The notes under the pieces are model-generated. The model ran no database searches, was not told the origin of the DNA, and saw only the letters and a list, made by a program, of their open reading frames with translations. From positions 1 to 41,135 of the forward strand of contig CBDUNP010000001.1 of assembly GCA_965368605.1 (NCBI GenBank): a DNA stretch of 41,135 bases. The letters are read 5' to 3'. The stretch comes from an uncultured bacterium. Its GTDB lineage: Bacteria; Planctomycetota; Phycisphaerae; Phycisphaerales; Phycisphaeraceae. Within the stretch, counting starts at the first letter, position 1; each line of letters opens with the position of its first letter. Both the position numbers and the translations under genes were made by a program. Shown piece by piece: positions 1 to 41,063 of this stretch.

Positions 1-280
1 ACCCCCCCGCGATCGCGGGCACAATCGAGACCTCGTCGCCCGCCTTCAACGGCGTCTGGAGGTTTTCCATGAAGCGGATGTCTTCATCGTTCACATAAAT
101 ATTGATGAAGCGGTTGATCTCGTTCTCGCTCTTGTAGAGCCGCTTGCCGAACTCGGGATAATCCCCGTTCAGCGAGCTGAGCACGTCGCCCACGGTTGCG
201 CCGGCCACGTCCAGCGACTCCTGGTCACCGACCTGGGGGCGAAGCGCGGTAGGGATTCTTACGGTCACGGTGTCTGCCAT
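1..280 (-). CDS. MoaD/ThiS-family small sulfur-carrier protein (CysO/MetO-like), 93 aa ending ...VPAIAGG; the stop codon lies just outside the window
   Basis: Hand translation from the ATG (complement of 278-280) gives MADTVTVRIPTALRPQVGDQESLDVAGATVGDVLSSLNGDYPEFGKRLYKSENEINRFINIYVNDEDIRFMENLQTPLKAGDEVSIVPAIAGG. The size is right for a beta-grasp carrier and the C-terminus is Gly-Gly. Base 1 is the T of the next codon, probably the stop. The gene starts 37 nt downstream of the ThrC-like gene. Confidence 0.8.
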   Translation of the reverse strand, partial: MADTVTVRIPTALRPQVGDQESLDVAGATVGDVLSSLNGDYPEFGKRLYKSENEINRFINIYVNDEDIRFMENLQTPLKAGDEVSIVPAIAGG

Positions 281-317
281 GTCTGTCTCTCTTAATAATC
301 GTGTCTGAAATAAATAA

Positions 318-1586
318 TCAGGCGGTCGTCGCCGGGGATTGGCTGGGGTGGTTCTCTTCCATCTGCTTGACCAGCTCGTCGAACTCGCTCATCTTCGCGT
401 TGATCGTCGGGTTGGCGGCGAACTGGCCTTCCATGACCTCGACGGTCTTCAGCCCGTTGCCCGTGATGCAGACGCAGATCGACTCGTCACGCGGGATACG
501 CCCGGACTCGATCAGCTTGATCGCGCAGGCCAGGGTCGTCCCGCCCGCCGGCTCGGTGAAGATGCCCTGGGTCCGGCCCAGCAGCTTCACCGCGTCGAGG
601 ATCTCCTGATCGCTGGCCGACTCGCCGAACCCGCCGGACTCCTTGATGACCTTAATGACGTAGTACCCGTCGGCCGGGTTGCCAATCGCGATGCTCTTGG
701 CGATCGTGTTGGGCTTCTGCGGGTGGAACAGCTCCTGCCCCTCACGCAGCGCGGTCACGACCGGGTTGCAGCCATCCGCCTGAGCGCCGTAGATCTTCGG
801 CTTGTTGTCATCGACGATGCCCAGCGTGATGAACTCCTGGTACGCCTTCCAGATCTTCGGCAGGATCGTCCCGCCGGCGACCGGGGAGACCGTGTGCTTT
901 GGCAACTGCCAGCCCATCTGCTCGGCGATCTCAAACCCGTGGGTCTTCGCGCCCTCGGTGTAGTACGGCCGAAGGTTCACGTTCACGATCGCCCAGTTGT
1001 ACTTATCCGCGATCTGCGAACACAGGCGGTTCACGTCGTCGTAGTTGCCCTTGATCTTGAACATCCGTGGGCCGAAGGTGAGCGTCGCAACGATCTTGCC
1101 CTCTTCCAGGTCGTGCGGGATCATCACGCAGGCCCGCAGCCCCGCCGCCGCCGCGTGAGCCGCCACGCTGTGCGCCAGGTTCCCGGTCGACGCACACCCG
1201 ACCGTGTCGAAATCAAACTCGACCGCCTTGGTCAGCGCCACCGACACCACACGATCCTTGTAGGAATACGACGGGTAGTTCGCGCTGTCGTCCTTGATAT
1301 AGAGTTCTTTAACGCCAAGCTCCGCCGCCAGGCGGTCCGCCTTGATCAACGGCGTAAACCCCGAGTTCAGACCGGCCTTGGGCTCGCCCTCGATCGGCAG
1401 CAGGTCCTTGTACCGCCACAGCGACCGCGGCCCCGCCTCGATCGATTCGCGGGTGACCTTGCCCTTCATCGCCTCGTAGTCGTACGCGACCTCCAGAGGC
1501 CCGAAGTCGTTGTCACAGACCGTCAGCGGCTTCAGCGCGTAGTCTGCCTGACACTCTTTACACTGCAATGATTTCACATAGCTCAT
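318..1586 (-). CDS. Threonine-synthase-family PLP enzyme (ThrC-like, 422 aa); candidate MetM-type homocysteine-forming enzyme rather than a true threonine synthase
   Basis: The ORF-track protein from MSYVKSLQCKECQADY... has an N-terminal Cys-rich ribbon and a PLP-lysine motif, SYSYKDR. The fold-type II core includes GCASTGNLAHSVAAHAAAAG and SIAIGNPADG. The start is set at the ATG at 1584-1586 because the longer track ORF (to 1808) runs through the riboswitch and terminator. Confidence 0.85.
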   Translation of the reverse strand: MSYVKSLQCKECQADYALKPLTVCDNDFGPLEVAYDYEAMKGKVTRESIEAGPRSLWRYKDLLPIEGEPKAGLNSGFTPLIKADRLAAELGVKELYIKDDSANYPSYSYKDRVVSVALTKAVEFDFDTVGCASTGNLAHSVAAHAAAAGLRACVMIPHDLEEGKIVATLTFGPRMFKIKGNYDDVNRLCSQIADKYNWAIVNVNLRPYYTEGAKTHGFEIAEQMGWQLPKHTVSPVAGGTILPKIWKAYQEFITLGIVDDNKPKIYGAQADGCNPVVTALREGQELFHPQKPNTIAKSIAIGNPADGYYVIKVIKESGGFGESASDQEILDAVKLLGRTQGIFTEPAGGTTLACAIKLIESGRIPRDESICVCITGNGLKTVEVMEGQFAANPTINAKMSEFDELVKQMEENHPSQSPATTA

Positions 1587-1640
1587 GGCGGCTCTCACTT
1601 CTCGTACTCGTTTATCCTCAGGCCCGACCCGATCCGACCC

Positions 1641-1676
1641 AACAAAAAACCCCTTCTCATCACAGATAAGAAGGGG
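1641..1676 (-). terminator. Intrinsic terminator forming the expression platform of the SAM-I riboswitch
   Basis: The minus-strand RNA is CCCCUUCUUAUC-UGU-GAUGAGAAGGGG, a 12-bp stem with one G-U pair, followed by UUUUUUGUU. The 5' arm (CUUCUUAUC) can alternatively pair with the aptamer P1 3' strand GAUAAGAG, which would act as the antiterminator. Confidence 0.85.
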
Positions 1677-1703
1677 CAGTGCTTTACGGGGTAAAGGGTC
1701 GCC

Positions 1704-1822
1704 GCCTCTTATCTTCCCCGGCTCATTGACCGGGCGGGACTTCGCACCTGCCCCCGGCTTTCGCCGAGACGGTTGCGGTGGCTTCACAGGGCCCATTCCC
1801 TCTGCCACTCTGGATAAGACGC
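1704..1822 (-). promoter_or_regulatory. SAM-I (S-box) riboswitch aptamer
   Basis: The minus-strand RNA reads GUCUUAUCCAGAGUGGCAGAGGGAAUGGCCCUGUGAAGCCACCGCAACCGUCUCGGCGAAAGCCGGGGGCAGGUGCGAAGUCCCGCCCGGUCAAUGAGCCGGGGAAGAUAAGAG. This reproduces the conserved S-box core: P1 CUUAUC/GAUAAG, AGAG-GGCAGAGGGA, GGCCC, GCAACC and GGUGC-AA-UCC. It is close to the B. subtilis yitJ element as I remember it. Confidence 0.9.
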
Positions 1823-1841
1823 TTGGATTTTGTAGCCCGGT

Positions 1842-1870
1842 AGTCTAGCCGGGGACCCGTATCAGGTCAA
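1842..1870 (-). promoter_or_regulatory. Candidate sigma70-type promoter for the riboswitch operon
   Basis: The minus strand reads TTGACC-N17-TAGACT, about 20 nt upstream of the aptamer and 3 nt after the stop of the preceding gene. It overlaps a CCCGG/CCGGG hairpin, so the assignment is tentative. Confidence 0.35.
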
Positions 1871-1873
1871 GAA

Positions 1874-3562
1874 TCACCGCTCACGACGCCTCAGAAGCCC
1901 TGCCACACCCAACACGAGCATGCCGCCCGCCGCGGGCTCGGGGACGAGGCTGCTCAGGTCGCCGTGCGGGTTGTAGGCCACGGTGTCGATCCAGACCGTG
2001 CCCTCCCAGTTGGTCCCGCCGGACGTCGCCGGGGCCGAGCTGAAGTACAGGGCATCGATAAAGGCGTTGGGCCCACCGATCGAGCCGCTGCCGCCGGAGA
2101 AGTTGTTCCACATCGTGTTGTTGGACAGGTCCCATTCGTAGAGGTGCCACTCGCCGTCGGCGATGACCTGCTGAAAGTTTGCCCGCTCCAGGCCGGTCTG
2201 CACGGTCGTGCCGTCGTCCAGCAGGATCGACGCATACAGCGGGTCGTTGCCCGGCTCCATCCTCAGGAAAAACCCGACGTGCCCCTGGGCCCCCATCGCC
2301 TTATCGCCGTCGTGCAGGTTGTTGCTGGGGCTGGCACCGCCGGAAAGAAACCGCAGCTGCATCCGTGCGGGCGACGCATCCGTATTCTCGATATCCAGAC
2401 GAAGCGACGACGTGCCCGCCTGGGCGAACTGGGTGTCCAACGCCGTAGCTGACCCCGCCGCCACGTTGCGCGACGACCCCGACGCATTCGGGGCCGACCC
2501 GAATCGGCCCTTGGTCCCCTCGAAGTCATCGAAGACCGTCAACGCCGTAAGCACCGGCTGCGCATCGGGCGCGGGCGGACGAGCGGGCTGGGGCAGCGGG
2601 TCATAACTGGGGTTGGGCGTCGCAAACACCGCGAAGTTGTTGGCGACCAGCCGCTCATTCCCCGGTGCCTGCGGCGTCGCGAAGTCGCTTGGGCTGTTGA
2701 CCAGCCTAGCGTTCTGGATGCCGTTGTTGCTGTCGTCCATCACCATGGTCGTCGAGCCGCCGCCGTCCACGTTGATCGCGTCCTTGGCGTTGAAGTGGTT
2801 GATCAGCAGGTCCGCCATCTCATCGGTACGCATACCTTCGGAGTAGGTGTTCTGTCGGCCGTCCACGGTCATCAGCAGGACGTGGCCGTCGAACGTCACG
2901 CCGATCGCCGTGTGTGGGTTCAGCGTGGTCGTGTAGCTGCCGCCGGGCGTGGTGTTCACGCCGTTGGTGATCAGGCGCTGGTTGCCGCCGATGGCGTTGA
3001 ACAATGGCACGCCCTGATCTGTATTGAACGTCCCCCCGCCGGCCGAGGTCAACACACTGGCGACCTTGCCAGCCGACACATTAAAGATCGACTCGTTGCC
3101 GTTGTTGCTCGGCGAATACCCGACGCCGCCGGACACGCCGGTGTGCACCACGTCGGTATAGAAGTTCCCGCCGGAAGGTGTGTAGGGCGGGGACGTGTCG
3201 TAGAAGTCGGCGTTGATCCCGATCTGCGCCCCGACGTTGTTAACGAAGCCGCGCGTCGTGGTCCGCGTCACCTCGCCGGGGTCCGCGCCGTTGCCCGGCT
3301 GCATCAGGAAGTCCACGCCCGGGGCCGTCGGATCGATCTCCATGATATTGATGACCACCGGCCGAGGCAGGTCAAACAACCCGCCGCCCAGGGTCGACCC
3401 GTCCTCCGCTTCGATGATCTGGTAATGCGTCACCCCGACAAACGGGTCCGCGGTATTGATCACCGCAGCCGACGCACTGATGACATGAACAAAAACCAAC
3501 GCCACAGCAAGCACCCACCGGCGGGAGAAACCGGCATGGCCCAAACCACAGAAAGACCTCAT
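1874..3562 (-). CDS. Secreted phosphodiester glycosidase (DUF2233/NAGPA-like) with a CBM-like middle domain and a C-terminal PEP-CTERM sorting signal
   Basis: The signal peptide is MRSFCGLGHAGFSRRWVLAVALVFVHVISASAA. The DUF2233-type core is NPHTAIGVTFDGHVLLMTVDGRQ...INVDGGGSTTMVM. The C-terminus is VPEPAAGGMLVLGVAGLLRRRER: a PEP motif, a TM helix and an Arg cluster. A GGAGG Shine-Dalgarno sequence sits 7 nt before the ATG. Confidence 0.75.
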   Translation of the reverse strand: MRSFCGLGHAGFSRRWVLAVALVFVHVISASAAVINTADPFVGVTHYQIIEAEDGSTLGGGLFDLPRPVVINIMEIDPTAPGVDFLMQPGNGADPGEVTRTTTRGFVNNVGAQIGINADFYDTSPPYTPSGGNFYTDVVHTGVSGGVGYSPSNNGNESIFNVSAGKVASVLTSAGGGTFNTDQGVPLFNAIGGNQRLITNGVNTTPGGSYTTTLNPHTAIGVTFDGHVLLMTVDGRQNTYSEGMRTDEMADLLINHFNAKDAINVDGGGSTTMVMDDSNNGIQNARLVNSPSDFATPQAPGNERLVANNFAVFATPNPSYDPLPQPARPPAPDAQPVLTALTVFDDFEGTKGRFGSAPNASGSSRNVAAGSATALDTQFAQAGTSSLRLDIENTDASPARMQLRFLSGGASPSNNLHDGDKAMGAQGHVGFFLRMEPGNDPLYASILLDDGTTVQTGLERANFQQVIADGEWHLYEWDLSNNTMWNNFSGGSGSIGGPNAFIDALYFSSAPATSGGTNWEGTVWIDTVAYNPHGDLSSLVPEPAAGGMLVLGVAGLLRRRER

Positions 3563-3648
3563 GGAGAACCTCCAGAAACAAAAATAAGATTGAGGCCGTG
3601 GGGAGTCACGACCAAGCGGGCCGGGAACAGGGAGAAGCCCGAACCCTA

Positions 3649-3676
3649 ATTATATAACTGAAAGTTGTAACTACAA
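3649..3676 (-). promoter_or_regulatory. Candidate promoter of the PEP-CTERM gene
   Basis: The minus strand reads TTGTAG-N16-TATAAT, a perfect -10 hexamer, in a locally AT-rich stretch about 85 nt upstream of the ATG. Confidence 0.4.
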
Positions 3677-3720
3677 GGTTTTTCCGGGGTTCATCAAAAA
3701 GCTATCCGGGCATACCGAAT

Positions 3721-3752
3721 AAAAAAAACGCCCCACCAATCTGGCGGGGCGT
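3721..3752 (-). terminator. Rho-independent terminator after rpsG
   Basis: The minus strand reads CGCCCCGCC-AGAU-UGGUGGGGCG followed by UUUUUUUU, about 28 nt after the rpsG stop. Confidence 0.85.
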
Positions 3753-3779
3753 TTGTGGTTTCGTAGGTTGCTTCGCTGA

Positions 3780-4256
3780 TTACCAGGCGAAGTGGGCGAA
3801 CGCCTTGTTCGCCGCGGCCATGCGGTGGACCTGGTCGCGGGTGTTCATGGCCTTGCCTTCCTTGCGGGAGGCGTCATAAAGCTCGCGGGCCAGACGCAGG
3901 TGCATCGGCTTGCCGGACTCGGCCCGGGCGGCGTTGATGATCCAGCGGAAGGTCAGGCTCTGCTGACGGCGACGGCTGACCTGCATGGGCACCTGGTAGT
4001 TCGTACCGCCGACACGCTTGGACCGGACCTCGACCTCGGGCCGAACGTTGGCGATCGCTTCGCGGAAGACTTCGATACCGGTGGGCTCGCCCTTGGTCCG
4101 CTTTTCGATCTCGTCGAGTGCGGCGTAGACGACGCGCTGGGCGACCGCCTTCTTGCCGTCACGCATGACGCAGTTGATGAAACGGGACAGGACCTTGTCG
4201 CCGTAGCGCGGGTCCGGTTTGAGCTGCTGTTCTGCTTTGGTGATTCTGCTGCCCAT
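3780..4256 (-). CDS. rpsG: 30S ribosomal protein S7
   Basis: Contains KPDPRYGDKVLSRFINCVMRDGKK...VEVRSKRVGGTNYQVP...ANKAFAHFAW, which are canonical S7 motifs, and has the expected length. Confidence 0.97.
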   Translation of the reverse strand: MGSRITKAEQQLKPDPRYGDKVLSRFINCVMRDGKKAVAQRVVYAALDEIEKRTKGEPTGIEVFREAIANVRPEVEVRSKRVGGTNYQVPMQVSRRRQQSLTFRWIINAARAESGKPMHLRLARELYDASRKEGKAMNTRDQVHRMAAANKAFAHFAW

Positions 4257-4422
4257 CGGGCATTCCTTTCCGCCGGCTCGTCAGGGGGAGAGCACGCTGC
4301 TTCCAATCCCTTCGTTCACCGCCTGGGTCAAAAAGACTCAAACGATTACTTGCCGATCAATGATGAAACTAAAACATTCCGCAAGCTCTTAGCAAAGAGC
4401 GAACGGCTAAAAAGCTAATGGC

Positions 4423-4800
4423 TTACTTACCCTTGGACTTCTTCACGCCGTACTTCGACCGGCCGCGGTTACGGCCCTCGACGCCCAGGCAGTCCAGCGA
4501 GCCACGCACAACGTGGTAACGCACACCAGGAAGGTCACGCACACGCCCGCCACGGACCAGCACGATGCTGTGTTCCTGGAGGTTGTGGCCCTCGCCGCCG
4601 ATGTAGGCCGAGATCTCTTTGCCGTTGGAAAGACGCACACGGCAGACCTTACGAAGAGCCGAGTTCGGCTTCTTGGGGGTCACGGTCTTGACCTGCAGAC
4701 ACACGCCACGACGCTGAGGACAGGCATCAAGGTCCTTGACCTTGGACTTGGCCTTAGGCGTGCGACGGGGCTTGCGGACGAGCTGATTAATCGTTGGCAT
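4423..4800 (-). CDS. rpsL: 30S ribosomal protein S12
   Basis: Contains [13 protein letters not shown]...[20 protein letters not shown]...[13 protein letters not shown]. The start is set at the internal ATG (4798-4800), which matches the conserved MPTINQL N-terminus. Confidence 0.97.
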
Positions 4801-4857
4801 ATCTAACCGTTCCGAATCCGGGGTTTGATCCAATATCTGTTACATATCGAGTCGGGC

Positions 4858-11126: not shown

Positions 11127-12350
11127 TCATCGTCCGGGTGACCGCACTTCCTCCTTGACCAACGCCCCGTCCGCGACCAGGCGCAGTTCCAGCGAGGCTT
11201 CGTCGCGTGTCCCGCCGTTCTCGTCGTAGACGCGGATCTTCAGGTGGTATTGCCCCATCCGGAGCTGGGCCGGCAGCGTCACCAGCTGGACCACGAAGAA
11301 GTCCCGGCGTTTGTTCTGCGATACGTCCGTGATCACCACCGGCTCGTGGCTCCAGACCTCGAACCCGTTGGACTCGTACAGCTCAAGCTCCTGACGCAGC
11401 CGGACCTCGTACCCCCCGCCGGCCTGGTTCTGCATCGGCTCGAAGTTGTCCAGCTCGACGTACACGATCAGCTTCTGCTCACGCCCCGCGACAAACGTGT
11501 GGTCCGGGAAGGCGTCGTACACGCCGTAGCCCATCACCTTCTCGCACAGGCGGATGTTGCGGATCGTCACCGGCCGATCGCCGTAGAGCTGATCCAGGCC
11601 ACCGGCGATCGCCTCACGATCCATCTCACCCTCGCCCGACAGCAGCTGTGCATGAAGCATGCTGACCGCGCGGTGATAATTCTTGATCCGCTGCTGATCC
11701 TCCGGCGAGAGCTTATTCAATAGCGACCAGTCCAGCTCGCCATGCGGCCCGATCGGCGCGAGCGTCGCCGCGGCGAGTGCCTTGGATAGATTCGAGTCGT
11801 CGCCGTGCCTGACCGCCTCGAGCAACTGGCTGTACGCCTGCGCTATCGACGGGACGGGTTTCGTCTGTTTAGCCGTGGTCTGCCCGGACACGTCGATGAC
11901 CGGCACCGCCTGGACATCGTGGCCCGCGGCCTGAGTGTCTGAAACGTCTACGGCGTCCGAGGCATCCGGGGAGGTGGTGGACATCGCCTCCATCGCGGAG
12001 ACCTGCGTGACAAGTTCCTGCGTCGGCTGCCCAGCCTCCACCTCGTTCACACCGCCCGCCACCTGCTGCTCACCCCCGACGTCACGCCACATGATCTGCT
12101 GCATCTGCGCCGGCTGCTGCGAGTCCGCCTGCATCTGCTGCACACGCTCCGCATACGACGCCGCCTGCGCAGCCAGATCATCGCCGGGTACAGCCTCGCC
12201 CCCGGAGTTCCCCCCGGCCTCAGCCAACTCTGTGTCTGTGGGTTGTGTGTTCCCGTCCAGCCCCGTCGGCAACGCCACCTCCTGGCAGCCGCTGACCAGA
12301 CCAAACATCACCGTGCCTAAACACCACCAACGATAGGACCTGCTTCGCAT
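11127..12350 (-). CDS. Predicted lipoprotein of unknown function (about 407 aa)
   Basis: An AGGAGG Shine-Dalgarno sequence sits 5 nt before the ATG at 12348-12350. The signal peptide with lipobox is MRSRSYRWWCLGTVMFGLVSGC. A Q/A/D-rich disordered linker leads to a structured C-terminal ~200 aa. I recognise no family. Confidence 0.6.
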   Translation of the reverse strand: MRSRSYRWWCLGTVMFGLVSGCQEVALPTGLDGNTQPTDTELAEAGGNSGGEAVPGDDLAAQAASYAERVQQMQADSQQPAQMQQIMWRDVGGEQQVAGGVNEVEAGQPTQELVTQVSAMEAMSTTSPDASDAVDVSDTQAAGHDVQAVPVIDVSGQTTAKQTKPVPSIAQAYSQLLEAVRHGDDSNLSKALAAATLAPIGPHGELDWSLLNKLSPEDQQRIKNYHRAVSMLHAQLLSGEGEMDREAIAGGLDQLYGDRPVTIRNIRLCEKVMGYGVYDAFPDHTFVAGREQKLIVYVELDNFEPMQNQAGGGYEVRLRQELELYESNGFEVWSHEPVVITDVSQNKRRDFFVVQLVTLPAQLRMGQYHLKIRVYDENGGTRDEASLELRLVADGALVKEEVRSPGR

Positions 12351-12414
12351 CGTGCCTCCTGCACTCGTGACTGATTTCCCCAGCCAAAGGTTCATCCATG
12401 AACCCTGTTCCGCA

Positions 12415-36708: not shown

Positions 36709-38412
36709 CTACTTGCCGCCGTCCTTGGGCGACTCGACCGGCACGATCCCCAACGCCTTGTAGACCTCCTCAAACAACTGGTCCACCTTGAACGGCTTGA
36801 ACATCACGCTGGACAACCCGTCCTGGCTGGCACGCACGATCGAGTGGTGCGGGTCGTAACCAAACCCCGTCATCAAAACCACCGGCATGTCGTCGCGCTG
36901 ACGACGCGCCGCGGCGAACACCTCGTAACCATTGCGGTAGGGCATCTTGATGTCCGAGATCACCAGGTCGAACGGGTCCTGCTCCAGCATCGTGCAGCTC
37001 TCGTACCCGTCCTTACACACCTCGACGATGCACCCGGCCTTGCGCAGGATACTGCTGATCGAGTTGCGGATGTTCGGCTCGTCGTCCGCGACCAGCACAC
37101 GCTTGCCCTTGAGGTTCGCGTCCACCCCGACCGCCGCGTGCTCCTTCTCGCCCAGCACGACGTTCGGCCCGGCGGCGACGTGCTTCACCGAGTCACGGAT
37201 ACGCTCGACGTTGTCAACGATCCGATTCAGCCGGCCACGCATCGTGTCGTCGCCGATGTACTCTTCCATCAGCGTCCGCGCCTCGGTCACGATGTCCGCC
37301 ATCGGCTTAGACATCTCCTGCACCACGCTCTCGGTGATCTGCCCGCTGATCGCGCAGCGCTCGGTCACCAGCAGGTCCAGGATGTTCAACGCCATCCCGA
37401 CGTACCGCCCGAAGATTTCTGCGAACTGCCGGTCGTCCTCGTTGAACGCCCCGACCTCGTCCGACTCGATGTTGTAGATCCCCACGACCTTATCAAACAG
37501 CTTCAAAGGCACGGTCAGCGAGCTCTTGCAGTGACGCAGGCCCAGCACGTACCGCGGGTCTTTCTCCGTGTCGTGGCAGATGTAGCTGCGCCCGGTCGCC
37601 GCGACATAACCGCTGATCCCGTTGCCCTCCGGCTGTGCGTAGAGGTCGATCTCCAACGCCTCGCTGGGGAGCCCCTCGGAGATGACCACCTCCAGCTTGC
37701 TGCTGCGCTTATCCAAGAGCCGGACCGCGAAGTGATCGAACCGCATCAGCTTCTTGGAGTACTTGATGATCTTCTCTTCAAGCAGCTTCAGGCGTTCGCT
37801 GGGCGAGAGCTTCGCCACCACGTCGGTCTCGATCCGCGACAGCTCGCGCCCCGCCGAGTCGATCGCGTCGATCTTGCCCTGGAGCATCCGGCCGCTGGTC
37901 GCGTCCCAGACCACCGCCACCACCTGCTGCACCTCGCCGGAGTCCATCACGACCGGCGAGCAGATCAGTTCGTAATAATTGTCTTCCACCTGGAACGTGT
38001 ACTTCTTGCTGCGCGGGCTGGACACGTCCGTGATCGGCCCGGACTGCGTCGAGAACACCGTCAGCGCCTGCACACACACCTGCCGGACGTGCTCGCTGAC
38101 CGTCGGCGTGAAGCTGCGCATCTTCCGGTTCGACCAGGTCGTCTGCCCGCTGGGGTCGACGATACACACGCCCTCGCCGATCGTGTTCAGCACCAGGCTC
38201 GACTTCTCGCCGACCAGCGCGCGCTCAAGCGGCAGGAAGTCGCCGACGTCCGCAAACACCGCCTGGTACGAGTGCGTACGCAGCGCAGCCATCGCCTGGT
38301 CCATCTCCTCAAACACATCCACATGAAAGTTCTGGCGCAGGTCATCCGTGACCGGGAAGTCCCGTGTCACGTTCCCGGCAAGAATCAGGATACGCGGGCG
38401 ATTATCATCCAT
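36709..38412 (-). CDS. Multidomain signalling protein: N-terminal receiver-like fragment, PAS, GAF, degenerate DHp-like helix, and a complete C-terminal receiver (REC); no recognisable output or ATPase domain
   Basis: The REC domain (aa ~438-555) reads KRVLVADDEP...DLVISDIKMP...VVLMTGF...MFKPF and keeps all the phospho-acceptor residues. The GAF domain (aa ~205-345) reads ...GISGYVAATGRSYICHDTEKDPRY...SSLTVPL....VVGIYNIES. The PAS domain (aa ~70-180) reads LNTIGEGVCIVDPSGQTTWSN. Confidence 0.75.
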   Translation of the reverse strand: MDDNRPRILILAGNVTRDFPVTDDLRQNFHVDVFEEMDQAMAALRTHSYQAVFADVGDFLPLERALVGEKSSLVLNTIGEGVCIVDPSGQTTWSNRKMRSFTPTVSEHVRQVCVQALTVFSTQSGPITDVSSPRSKKYTFQVEDNYYELICSPVVMDSGEVQQVVAVVWDATSGRMLQGKIDAIDSAGRELSRIETDVVAKLSPSERLKLLEEKIIKYSKKLMRFDHFAVRLLDKRSSKLEVVISEGLPSEALEIDLYAQPEGNGISGYVAATGRSYICHDTEKDPRYVLGLRHCKSSLTVPLKLFDKVVGIYNIESDEVGAFNEDDRQFAEIFGRYVGMALNILDLLVTERCAISGQITESVVQEMSKPMADIVTEARTLMEEYIGDDTMRGRLNRIVDNVERIRDSVKHVAAGPNVVLGEKEHAAVGVDANLKGKRVLVADDEPNIRNSISSILRKAGCIVEVCKDGYESCTMLEQDPFDLVISDIKMPYRNGYEVFAAARRQRDDMPVVLMTGFGYDPHHSIVRASQDGLSSVMFKPFKVDQLFEEVYKALGIVPVESPKDGGK

Positions 38413-39797: not shown

Positions 39798-41063
39798 ATG
39801 AACCAATCCAACGAAACCAGCTCCGACACGCTGTTGGGCAAACTCCTGGTTGAGAGAGGCCTGGCCACCCAGGAAGATATCCAGTCCTGCATCCAGATGC
39901 AGCGCGAGGTTTCCCTGGAATCCAGCGTCGCCGGCGAATCCGAGCCCCCCAACCACCGCAGCCTCGCCCAGATCGTCGTCGATGAGGGCGTCGTCACCCA
40001 GAAACAGATCGAACGCATCCGCCCGGAAGTCGAAGAGCAGAGCGGCAAGCGCGTCATCCCCGACTACCAGATCCTCGAACGCCTGGGCGCAGGCGCGATG
40101 GCCACCGTCTACAAGGCCCGCCAGCTCAAGCTCGACCGCATGGTCGCCATCAAGGTCCTCCCCAAGAAGCACTCCAACAACAAAGACTTCGTCCGCCGGT
40201 TCTTCGACGAGGGCAAGGCCGCCGCCAAGCTCAACCACCCCAACATCGTCGGCGCGATCGACGTCGGCCAGGCCGGCGAAACCTACTACTTCGTCATGGA
40301 ATACGTCGAGGGCCGAAGCGTCTTCGAAGACATCCAGGAGAAGGGCCCCTACTCCGAAGCCGACGCCCTCAAGCTCACCATCGACATCGCCCGCGCCCTG
40401 GAACACGCCCACAAGGCCGGCTTCATCCACCGCGACGTCAAGCCTAAAAACATCATGCTCACCGGCGACAACATCGCCAAGCTCGCCGACATGGGCCTCG
40501 CCCGCGCCGTCTCCGACCGTGAGGCCGCCGAGGCCGAGGCAGGTAAAGCCTTCGGCACCCCGTACTATATCTCCCCCGAACAGATCAAAGGCAAGATGGA
40601 CGTCGACAAACGCGCCGACATCTACAGCCTCGGGTGCACCCTCTACCACATGGTCACCGGGAAAGTCCCTTTCGACGGGCCCAACCCCTCCACCGTCATG
40701 CGCAAGCACCTGGACACCGACCTCACCCCCGTCGACCACATCAACCACGACCTGACCAAAGGCCTCGCCGAGATCATCGAGGTCTGCATGGCCAAGGACC
40801 GCAACCAGCGCTACGCCACCGCCGGCGACCTGCTCCAGGACCTCGAAGCCGTCGCCCGAGGCGAAGCCCCCCCGCTGGCCCGCAAGATGTTCGACCTCTC
40901 CGAGCTCTCCGCACTCGATCAGAGCAACGCCCCCCTGGAAATCGTCTCGCTCCCCCAGGCCGAGCCCCTCATCGAGTCCCCCCTCTTCTGGGTCGCCGCG
41001 ATCGGCTGGTTCGGCGTCGTCCTCCTGCTGATCATCCTCCTGGTCACCCTCGCCGCCCAATAA
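39798..41063 (+). CDS. Ser/Thr protein kinase (Hanks type) with an N-terminal T2SSE_N/MshEN-like helical motif pair and a C-terminal TM anchor
   Basis: The kinase core contains LGAGAMATVYKA, VAIKVL, HRDVKPKNIML, DMGLAR and GTPYYISPEQ. The N-terminus contains LLGKLLVERGLATQEDIQSCIQMQ and SLAQIVVDEGVVTQKQIERI. The C-terminus contains LFWVAAIGWFGVVLLLIILLVTLAA. Confidence 0.88.
   Translation: MNQSNETSSDTLLGKLLVERGLATQEDIQSCIQMQREVSLESSVAGESEPPNHRSLAQIVVDEGVVTQKQIERIRPEVEEQSGKRVIPDYQILERLGAGAMATVYKARQLKLDRMVAIKVLPKKHSNNKDFVRRFFDEGKAAAKLNHPNIVGAIDVGQAGETYYFVMEYVEGRSVFEDIQEKGPYSEADALKLTIDIARALEHAHKAGFIHRDVKPKNIMLTGDNIAKLADMGLARAVSDREAAEAEAGKAFGTPYYISPEQIKGKMDVDKRADIYSLGCTLYHMVTGKVPFDGPNPSTVMRKHLDTDLTPVDHINHDLTKGLAEIIEVCMAKDRNQRYATAGDLLQDLEAVARGEAPPLARKMFDLSELSALDQSNAPLEIVSLPQAEPLIESPLFWVAAIGWFGVVLLLIILLVTLAAQ

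Follow-up and report, generated by a model that had tools for sequence, protein, structure and literature searches.

A SAM-I riboswitch, a ThrC-like enzyme and a Gly-Gly sulfur carrier: a probable MetM/MetO-type homocysteine operon in a Phycisphaeraceae bacterium

The stretch of DNA analyzed here (the window; 41,135 nt, positions 1 to 41,135 of contig CBDUNP010000001.1 in assembly GCA_965368605.1) comes from an uncultured planctomycete of the family Phycisphaeraceae. Its first 1,870 nt carry, all on the minus strand, an S-adenosylmethionine (SAM) riboswitch, a gene for a pyridoxal phosphate (PLP) enzyme of the threonine synthase (ThrC) fold, and a gene for a small sulfur carrier of the ThiS/MoaD type. 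A preliminary description of the window, made from the sequence alone, had taken the two genes for a module that synthesizes homocysteine with a protein thiocarboxylate as sulfur donor, in the manner of the MetM/MetO pair of Streptomyces. Here we describe the riboswitch, the two genes and the rest of their operon, follow them across other genomes, and weigh this interpretation against its alternatives.

The RNA leader was examined for its aptamer and for the elements that could transmit ligand binding to gene expression. Rfam family RF00162 (SAM-I, or S-box) matches positions 1706-1820 of the minus strand at 82.8 bits (gathering score, 44.4; E = 3.3e-18), spanning model positions 1-108 of 108, i.e., the full aptamer, and it is the sole Rfam match across the 41-kb window; the custom SAM-I covariance model introduced below scores the same segment at 109 bits. 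The S-box aptamer that had been placed at 1704-1822 is thus recovered to within 2 nt by a highly significant match. About 22 nt upstream of it, a consensus scan finds a weak sigma-70-like promoter candidate (TTGACC and TAGACT, 17 nt apart; 1842-1870, minus strand; 9 of 12 matches). On the other side of the aptamer lies an intrinsic terminator (1639-1677, minus strand) made of a 13-bp stem (1677-1649), a 3-nt loop and a U-tract, TTTTTGTTGG; the hairpin and U-tract had been seen before, but the stem has 13 pairs and not 12. The 5′ arm of this terminator, CCUUCUUAUCU (~1675-1664), also pairs with the 3′ strand of aptamer helix P1, AGAUAAGAGG (~1714-1705), to yield an antiterminator (1664-1714, minus strand), which is the minimum free energy fold (-66.4 kcal/mol) of the nascent RNA stopped at the terminator loop. 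The leader as a whole folds with z = -3.0 and is more stable than 200 of 200 shuffled sequences. Because P1 and the antiterminator are mutually exclusive, with the terminator behind them, the modeled element is a transcriptional OFF switch for SAM. The same aptamer-terminator architecture is present in the Planctomycetota relatives L005, L096, L063 and L124.

The metM-like gene behind the riboswitch (318-1586, minus strand) starts with an ATG at 1586; an in-frame GTG at 1808 falls within the aptamer and is not the start codon, and the N-terminus MSYVKSL-CKEC is kept in relatives. In agreement with the preliminary description, the product is a 422-aa PLP enzyme of the ThrC family, matching PALP of Pfam with 218 bits and the NCBIfam equivalog model TIGR00260 (thrC) with 283.5 bits versus a cut-off of 167.1, which is why annotation pipelines name it thrC. 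Such mislabeling had been predicted, and indeed every named homologue of the enzyme is called “threonine synthase”; the GapMind preprint (10.1101/2024.10.14.618325), which lists MetO, Mec, MoeZ and MetM, likewise remarks that this name is often wrongly given to MetM. Among other candidate identities, cysteate synthase was rejected (65.8 bits versus a cut-off of 324.9), as were threonine deaminase and other PALP families, none of which comes near its cut-off. The enzyme begins with a zinc-ribbon-like extension of about 55 aa (C9, C12, C24 and D27; across the clade described below the residues are C9, C12, C24 and C27, with Asp at 27 in the window enzyme), and its PLP lysine is K110 (SYKDR), which aligns with K61 of Thermus ThrC. 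Alignments to the solved ThrCs of Aquifex (2ZSJ), Thermus (1UIM), Bacillus subtilis (6CGQ) and Mycobacterium tuberculosis (2D1F) begin only at residue 53-58 and yield 35-37% identity, whereas the orthologues of 15 Streptomyces species are 49-51% identical over about 400 aa, N-terminal extension included; identity to the Microcystis novacekii orthologue is 54%. An identical 422-aa protein is encoded on two further public contigs. The rest of the 41-kb window contains no other met or thr genes, and no further thrC was found in these ~41 kb of the genome or in the 10-kb flanks of relatives.

The metO-like carrier gene (1-280, minus strand) starts 37 nt past the enzyme stop on the same strand and encodes a 93-aa ThiS/MoaD beta-grasp protein ending in AIAGG (ThiS Pfam PF02597, 65 bits). 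The preliminary description is right about its length, position and terminus, but the stop codon is not within the window: the reading frame meets the window edge with the GG codons followed by a lone T, and the stop lies just beyond position 1. Since the near-identical contigs L001 and L002 (98% and 99.7% DNA identity to the window) have a stop, TGA or TAA, directly after GG, the Gly-Gly terminus is real. Among PDB entries, the carrier is best matched by CysO of M. tuberculosis from the CysO-CysM complex (3DWG_C, E = 1e-22), and the BexX partner (4N6E_B) is another top relative. Of the family models, moaD_arch gives 57.6 bits, above its cut-off, and SAMP1 61.4 bits versus a cut-off of 60; the bacterial moaD equivalog TIGR01682 remains at 17.9 bits versus 66.15.

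Beyond the left edge, the operon can be followed in L001 and in L005, a 5.76-Mb genome whose MetM-like protein is 89% identical to the window enzyme. Both have the order metM, metO, NIL, GNAT, ThiF, DinB_2, DinB_2 and cysteine desulfurase, with intergenic gaps of 24-52 nt in L001 and L002 and up to 131 nt in L005. The NIL-domain protein is 84 aa long (L001:10040-10294, L005:11716-11970). The ThiF gene (L001:10782-11900) encodes a ThiF/MoeB-type E1 of 372-377 aa (PRK12475 type; PF00899, 240 bits), and the off-window cysteine desulfurase at the operon end scores 405 bits with TIGR01977. The guess that the activating E1 sits to the left of the window is therefore correct for these relatives, while a JAMM gene, which the preliminary description had proposed to look for in the same place, does not appear within 10 kb. 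That description had also named an adjacent moaE as a sign of molybdopterin synthesis; the near-identical contigs have no moaE within 10 kb and carry the ThiF E1 and the cysteine desulfurase instead, and thiG and thiH are likewise missing from the gene lists of L001 and L005 over this distance. No Cys_Met_Meta_PP sulfhydrylase and no JAB/JAMM gene occurs in these two lists.

In this respect, two features of L001 are worth mentioning. Its E1 has CLRC and CECC zinc motifs and ends in a domain of about 100 aa with the sequence “LCGRN”, where the archaeal carrier-E1 fusions described below show “LCGRD”. In addition, its carrier and NIL genes are separated by a 436-bp low-GC insertion (L001:9598-10033) that L002, L005 and the window-type sequence do not have. 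Bounded by inverted repeats of 29 nt with 90% complementarity, and carrying a 123-aa GxxExxY / PD-(D/E)XK ORF (TIGR04256, 154 bits), it looks like a small selfish element inside the operon.

An exhaustive homologue search revealed a motif common to the closer relatives of the enzyme, N-[VI]-[NT]-x-R-P-[YFW]-Y-x-EG-[SA]-KT, in the place where ThrCs have N-S-V-N-P-x-R-x-EGQKT; a search starting from the Micromonosporaceae protein P0126 returned Micromonosporaceae only. A degenerate DNA pattern for the clade motif was scanned over a collection of species-representative genomes and yielded at least 120 loci; all counts of carriers, riboswitches and NIL genes given below refer to the matches listed. 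These come from Streptomyces (16) and other Actinomycetota, Acidobacteriota, Cyanobacteriota including Microcystis, Chloroflexota, Planctomycetota, Nitrospirota and Dormibacterota, from one genome each of Verrucomicrobiota, Elusimicrobiota and Aquificaceae, and from Archaea. Since the motif served to pick the loci, any argument from its conservation among them would be circular. Neither the tree nor the linkage to carriers and to riboswitches depends on it.

In a neighbor-joining tree of 113 sequences and 406 columns, the four bacterial PDB ThrCs form a group of their own, and a clade of 92 sequences leaves them out in 100 of 100 bootstraps. The phylogenetic comparison called for in the preliminary description thus puts the enzyme outside the true threonine synthases, in line with the identity values above. 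Among the columns that are invariant or nearly so in the clade and differ in all four ThrCs are (Thermus numbering) T88L, S155N, N157R, R160Y, Q164S, A240S, S248D and W249G. L137, N204 and Y209, corresponding to ThrC T88, S155 and R160, are invariant in the 92 clade members, as is the new R206, and the window enzyme reads N202-V-N-L-R206-P-Y-Y209 in this region. The signature N-V-N-x-R-P-Y-Y, instead of N-S-V-N-P-x-R, accordingly tells the clade from ThrC. The PLP lysine (K61), the ASTGN loop and EG-x-KT are retained in both. We take T88, S155 and R160 to hold the substrate/product phosphate that steers the addition of water in ThrC; if this is right, their loss fits a shift from beta-addition of water to gamma-replacement by sulfur.

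Linkage to a carrier and to a riboswitch extends far beyond the window. Of 101 evaluable loci, 88 have a MetO-like ThiS gene downstream in the same orientation, at most 1.5 kb away, and the enzyme-carrier pairing is conserved across more than 10 phyla. RF00162 was found by Rfam directly upstream in 9/18 sampled loci, including 4/4 from Streptomyces; with a custom covariance model built from 13 Rfam RF00162 matches, 76 of 106 evaluable loci show a same-strand SAM-I element ahead of the enzyme gene, at a distance of 6-226 nt from its estimated start. Its distribution is uneven: it is present in all Streptomyces (15/15), other Actinomycetota (36/36) and Acidobacteriota (13/13), in 4/5 Planctomycetota and 4/8 Chloroflexota, and in none of the Cyanobacteriota (0/10), Archaea (0/6) or Nitrospirota (0/3). 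The combination of SAM-I, MetM-like and MetO-like genes is therefore widespread, reaching from Actinomycetota and Acidobacteriota to Planctomycetota, Chloroflexota and one Verrucomicrobiota genome, while Cyanobacteriota, Nitrospirota and Archaea have the pair minus the riboswitch. Lack of a SAM riboswitch at the cyanobacterial loci is in agreement with an earlier report (PMC12172450).

The carriers also vary at their C-termini. Among 90 complete genes, 58 stop directly after Gly-Gly, whereas the others continue, by 1-3 residues in 21 cases, by a longer tail in 9 and by fusion to an E1 in 2. The short-tail class includes Gly-Gly-Cys in several Streptomyces, which matches a step that GapMind lists as “[MetO]-L-cysteine hydrolase Mec”. 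Two Acidobacteriaceae loci (L065 and L074) encode carrier homologues with Cys-rich tails beyond Gly-Gly, e.g., GGSCSCCSYCGREECVCG, which would have to be removed before thiocarboxylation. In Nitrososphaeraceae (L016) and Thermoproteota (L079), a single reading frame joins the MetO-like domain to a ThiF-type E1, with Gly-Gly kept internally; such a carrier would either have to be cut free or function in cis.

A stand-alone NIL gene of about 84 aa adjoins metO in 17 of 101 loci from at least seven phyla, located after metO or, in Chloroflexota, before it. It occurs in Planctomycetota, Nitrospirota, Chloroflexota, Dormibacterota, one Verrucomicrobiota genome, one Elusimicrobiota genome and Caldimicrobium, and never beside metO in the listed loci of Actinomycetota, Cyanobacteriota and Acidobacteriota; an 88-aa ORF behind the carrier in L006 was considered and is not a NIL domain. 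Riboswitches accompany 4/14 NIL-positive versus 72/92 NIL-negative loci (Fisher p = 4e-4, phylogeny not accounted for). The NIL proteins have no conserved cysteine and no significant solved relative by sequence, the C-terminal domain of MetN (2QRR) giving E = 0.78. Elsewhere, NIL domains are known to form the methionine-regulated C-terminus of MetN and to occur, combined with ferredoxin, in a protein of the DUF39 homocysteine pathway (PMC5764234), and a ligand-sensing or adaptor role for the stand-alone protein would be plausible.

We consider it very probable, judging from these comparisons, that the window holds the 5′ part of a MetM/MetO-type methionine-biosynthesis operon yielding homocysteine. 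MetM/MetO was characterized in S. albulus (Hasebe et al. 2024, Appl Environ Microbiol 90:e01247-24), with a SAM riboswitch preceding metM according to the account given in PMC12172450; since the features of the window match those in the literature, it represents a Planctomycetota member of a system already described in Streptomyces. What the preliminary description says of MetM/MetO is correct, Hasebe et al. 2024 being cited in PMC12172450 and in the GapMind preprint, and its assignment of the pair to a homocysteine module is supported by the RF00162 match, the position of the enzyme outside ThrC and the lack of moaE, the three findings that could have overturned it and could be checked.

For the substrates, the flow of sulfur and the release of homocysteine, we infer the following course. 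The ThiF-type E1, encoded three genes downstream, would adenylate the Gly-Gly C-terminus of the carrier MetO, and the adenylate would be converted into a thiocarboxylate with sulfur drawn from cysteine by the desulfurase at the operon end. The MetM-like enzyme would then remove phosphate from O-phospho-L-homoserine and add the thiocarboxylate sulfur at C-gamma, giving homocysteine, which would be methylated to methionine. At high SAM, the bound aptamer would stabilize P1 and free the terminator, halting transcription before metM; at low SAM, the 3′ strand of P1 would form the antiterminator, and the whole operon would be read through. As for the additional genes, we see it as possible but doubtful that the Phycisphaerae operon is a self-contained variant of the thiocarboxylate route with undescribed components, in which NIL would be a methionine-, SAM- or homocysteine-sensing subunit or an adaptor of MetM, MetO and E1, and in which the E1 with its LCGR domain, the two DinB_2 metalloproteins and the desulfurase would replace sulfur transfer by MoeZ; any role of the GNAT protein would be equally conjectural.

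Several observations weigh against the assignment to MetM/MetO. In L001 and L005, the operon E1 does not have the rhodanese domain found in MoeZ, and the 10-kb flanks contain no gene for a JAMM/Mec hydrolase, so that neither sulfur transfer nor release is accounted for. The link to S. albulus MetM was made via other Streptomyces orthologues, recognized by SAM-I upstream and metO downstream. Finally, the Microcystis “ThrC”, a cyanobacterial member of the clade, is reported to produce threonine from O-phosphohomoserine and to deaminate threonine in vitro, and its induction in vivo did not raise methionine (PMC12172450).

The last of these observations bears on the main alternative, that the enzyme is a real threonine synthase or a bifunctional threonine synthase/threonine deaminase and that the riboswitch merely tunes flux at the O-phosphohomoserine branch point. 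The TIGR00260 score above cut-off agrees with it, as does the Microcystis protein, which in vitro showed Michaelis-Menten kinetics as a threonine synthase and also acted as a deaminase (PMC12172450); a ThrC activity that is residual, or one of two, is therefore kept in consideration. However, the cyanobacterial loci are precisely those without a riboswitch, T88, S155 and R160 of ThrC are all replaced in the clade, and a CysO-like carrier terminating in Gly-Gly and a SAM-I element accompany most loci, in the proportions given above. Moreover, a SAM-OFF switch on a threonine synthase would be the opposite of known logic, plant threonine synthase being activated by SAM. We regard this explanation as unlikely.

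The pair could also make a different sulfur compound, either cysteine from O-phosphoserine, as CysM and CysO do, or a thio-metabolite comparable to the 2-thiosugar of BexX/CysO. CysO and the BexX partner are indeed the top PDB relatives of the carrier, and cysteine genes, too, are found under SAM-I riboswitches, but the enzyme belongs to the ThrC family and not to CysM/CysK or BexX, it falls far short of the cysteate synthase cut-off, and its Streptomyces orthologues belong to a route shown to give homocysteine; this makes such a product quite improbable. It is highly improbable that the carrier is an ordinary MoaD/ThiS protein for molybdopterin or thiamin that happens to lie beside a thrC paralogue, since its scores with moaD_arch and SAMP1 are offset by the failure to reach the bacterial moaD cut-off, by the lack of moaE, thiG and thiH within 10 kb, by a ThrC-like pairing conserved across more than 10 phyla, and by control through SAM, not through molybdenum cofactor or thiamin pyrophosphate.

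If the assignment to MetM/MetO holds, it corrects the annotation of the enzyme: since every named homologue found here is called “threonine synthase”, metabolic reconstructions of Phycisphaerae and of many other phyla would overlook this way of making methionine, or would predict an auxotrophy that does not exist. The operon context further nominates candidates for missing parts of the pathway, namely NIL, the rhodanese-less E1 and the DinB_2 pair. The novelty is only modest, and is limited to the self-contained sulfur-relay operon and the recurrent stand-alone NIL gene.

Other genes of the window are mentioned here for completeness. Upstream of the operon (1874-4833, minus strand), fusA/tuf do not come next after rpsL (4423-4833) and rpsG (3780-4256); in their place is a gene for a 562-aa NAGPA-domain (phosphodiester glycosidase) protein with a PEP-CTERM-like C-terminal sorting signal (PEPAAGG...RRRER). 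Between pyrR and holA, a 422-aa ORF (11127-12395, minus strand) has gene-like codon usage (GC content at third codon positions, GC3, of 0.83) and no Pfam or NCBIfam match. A 567-aa GAF-domain protein with a C-terminal receiver domain is encoded at 36709-38412 (minus strand), and a Ser/Thr kinase at 39798-41063 (plus strand), the N-terminal part of the latter weakly resembling an MshE-type c-di-GMP-binding motif (28.6 bits versus a cut-off of 38).

Comparison with known systems shows that the window is closest to MetM/MetO of Streptomyces. With the S. albulus pair it shares a ThrC-homologous PLP enzyme followed by a Gly-Gly sulfur carrier, with a SAM-I riboswitch upstream; with the Streptomyces orthologues it shares the clade, an identity of about one half and the signature N-[VI]-N-x-R-P-[YF]-Y-x-EG-x-KT. 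The differences lie in control and in sulfur supply. In Streptomyces and Micromonosporaceae, the aptamer abuts the Shine-Dalgarno sequence and start codon, which suggests translational control, whereas the riboswitch of the window would act via an intrinsic terminator. The window carrier ends in plain Gly-Gly, in contrast to Gly-Gly-Cys in some Streptomyces carriers, and, having no extra Cys, would need no maturation by Mec. Unlike the Streptomyces system, the Phycisphaerae operon itself encodes an E1, which differs from MoeZ in having no rhodanese domain, together with a cysteine desulfurase, NIL, GNAT and two DinB_2 proteins.

Canonical ThrCs (1UIM, 2ZSJ, 6CGQ and 2D1F) have in common with the window enzyme the fold, the PLP lysine, the ASTGN loop, EG-x-KT and probably the substrate, O-phosphohomoserine. 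They differ from it in lacking the zinc-ribbon-like extension of about 55 aa, in their low identity and fully supported separate grouping, and in having T88, S155, N157 and R160 where the window clade has L, N, R and Y. For comparison, B. subtilis ThrC is 33% identical to MetM (2026 preprint).

The M. tuberculosis CysM/CysO/MoeZ/Mec system resembles the window in its carrier, CysO being the closest, and in the logic of a thiocarboxylate donor and an O-phospho amino acid acceptor; however, the window enzyme is of the ThrC family instead of CysM/CysK, its predicted product is homocysteine instead of cysteine, and no Mec gene is nearby. In HcyS/HcyF/HcyD/MetY of Wolinella succinogenes, homocysteine likewise receives its sulfur from a protein thiocarboxylate, and the E1 gene is close by, but Wolinella uses the O-acetylhomoserine sulfhydrylase MetY, which has another PLP fold, and a carrier-trimming JAMM protease, neither of which is in the L001 and L005 gene lists. 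The homocysteine pathway of methanogens and Desulfovibrio with DUF39 and NIL/ferredoxin proteins (PMC5764234) has in common with the Phycisphaerae operon a NIL domain genetically tied to homocysteine synthesis; in the latter, however, no DUF39 gene is present, and the NIL protein, stand-alone, about 84 aa long and without a ferredoxin domain, is encoded beside a ThrC-like enzyme and its carrier.

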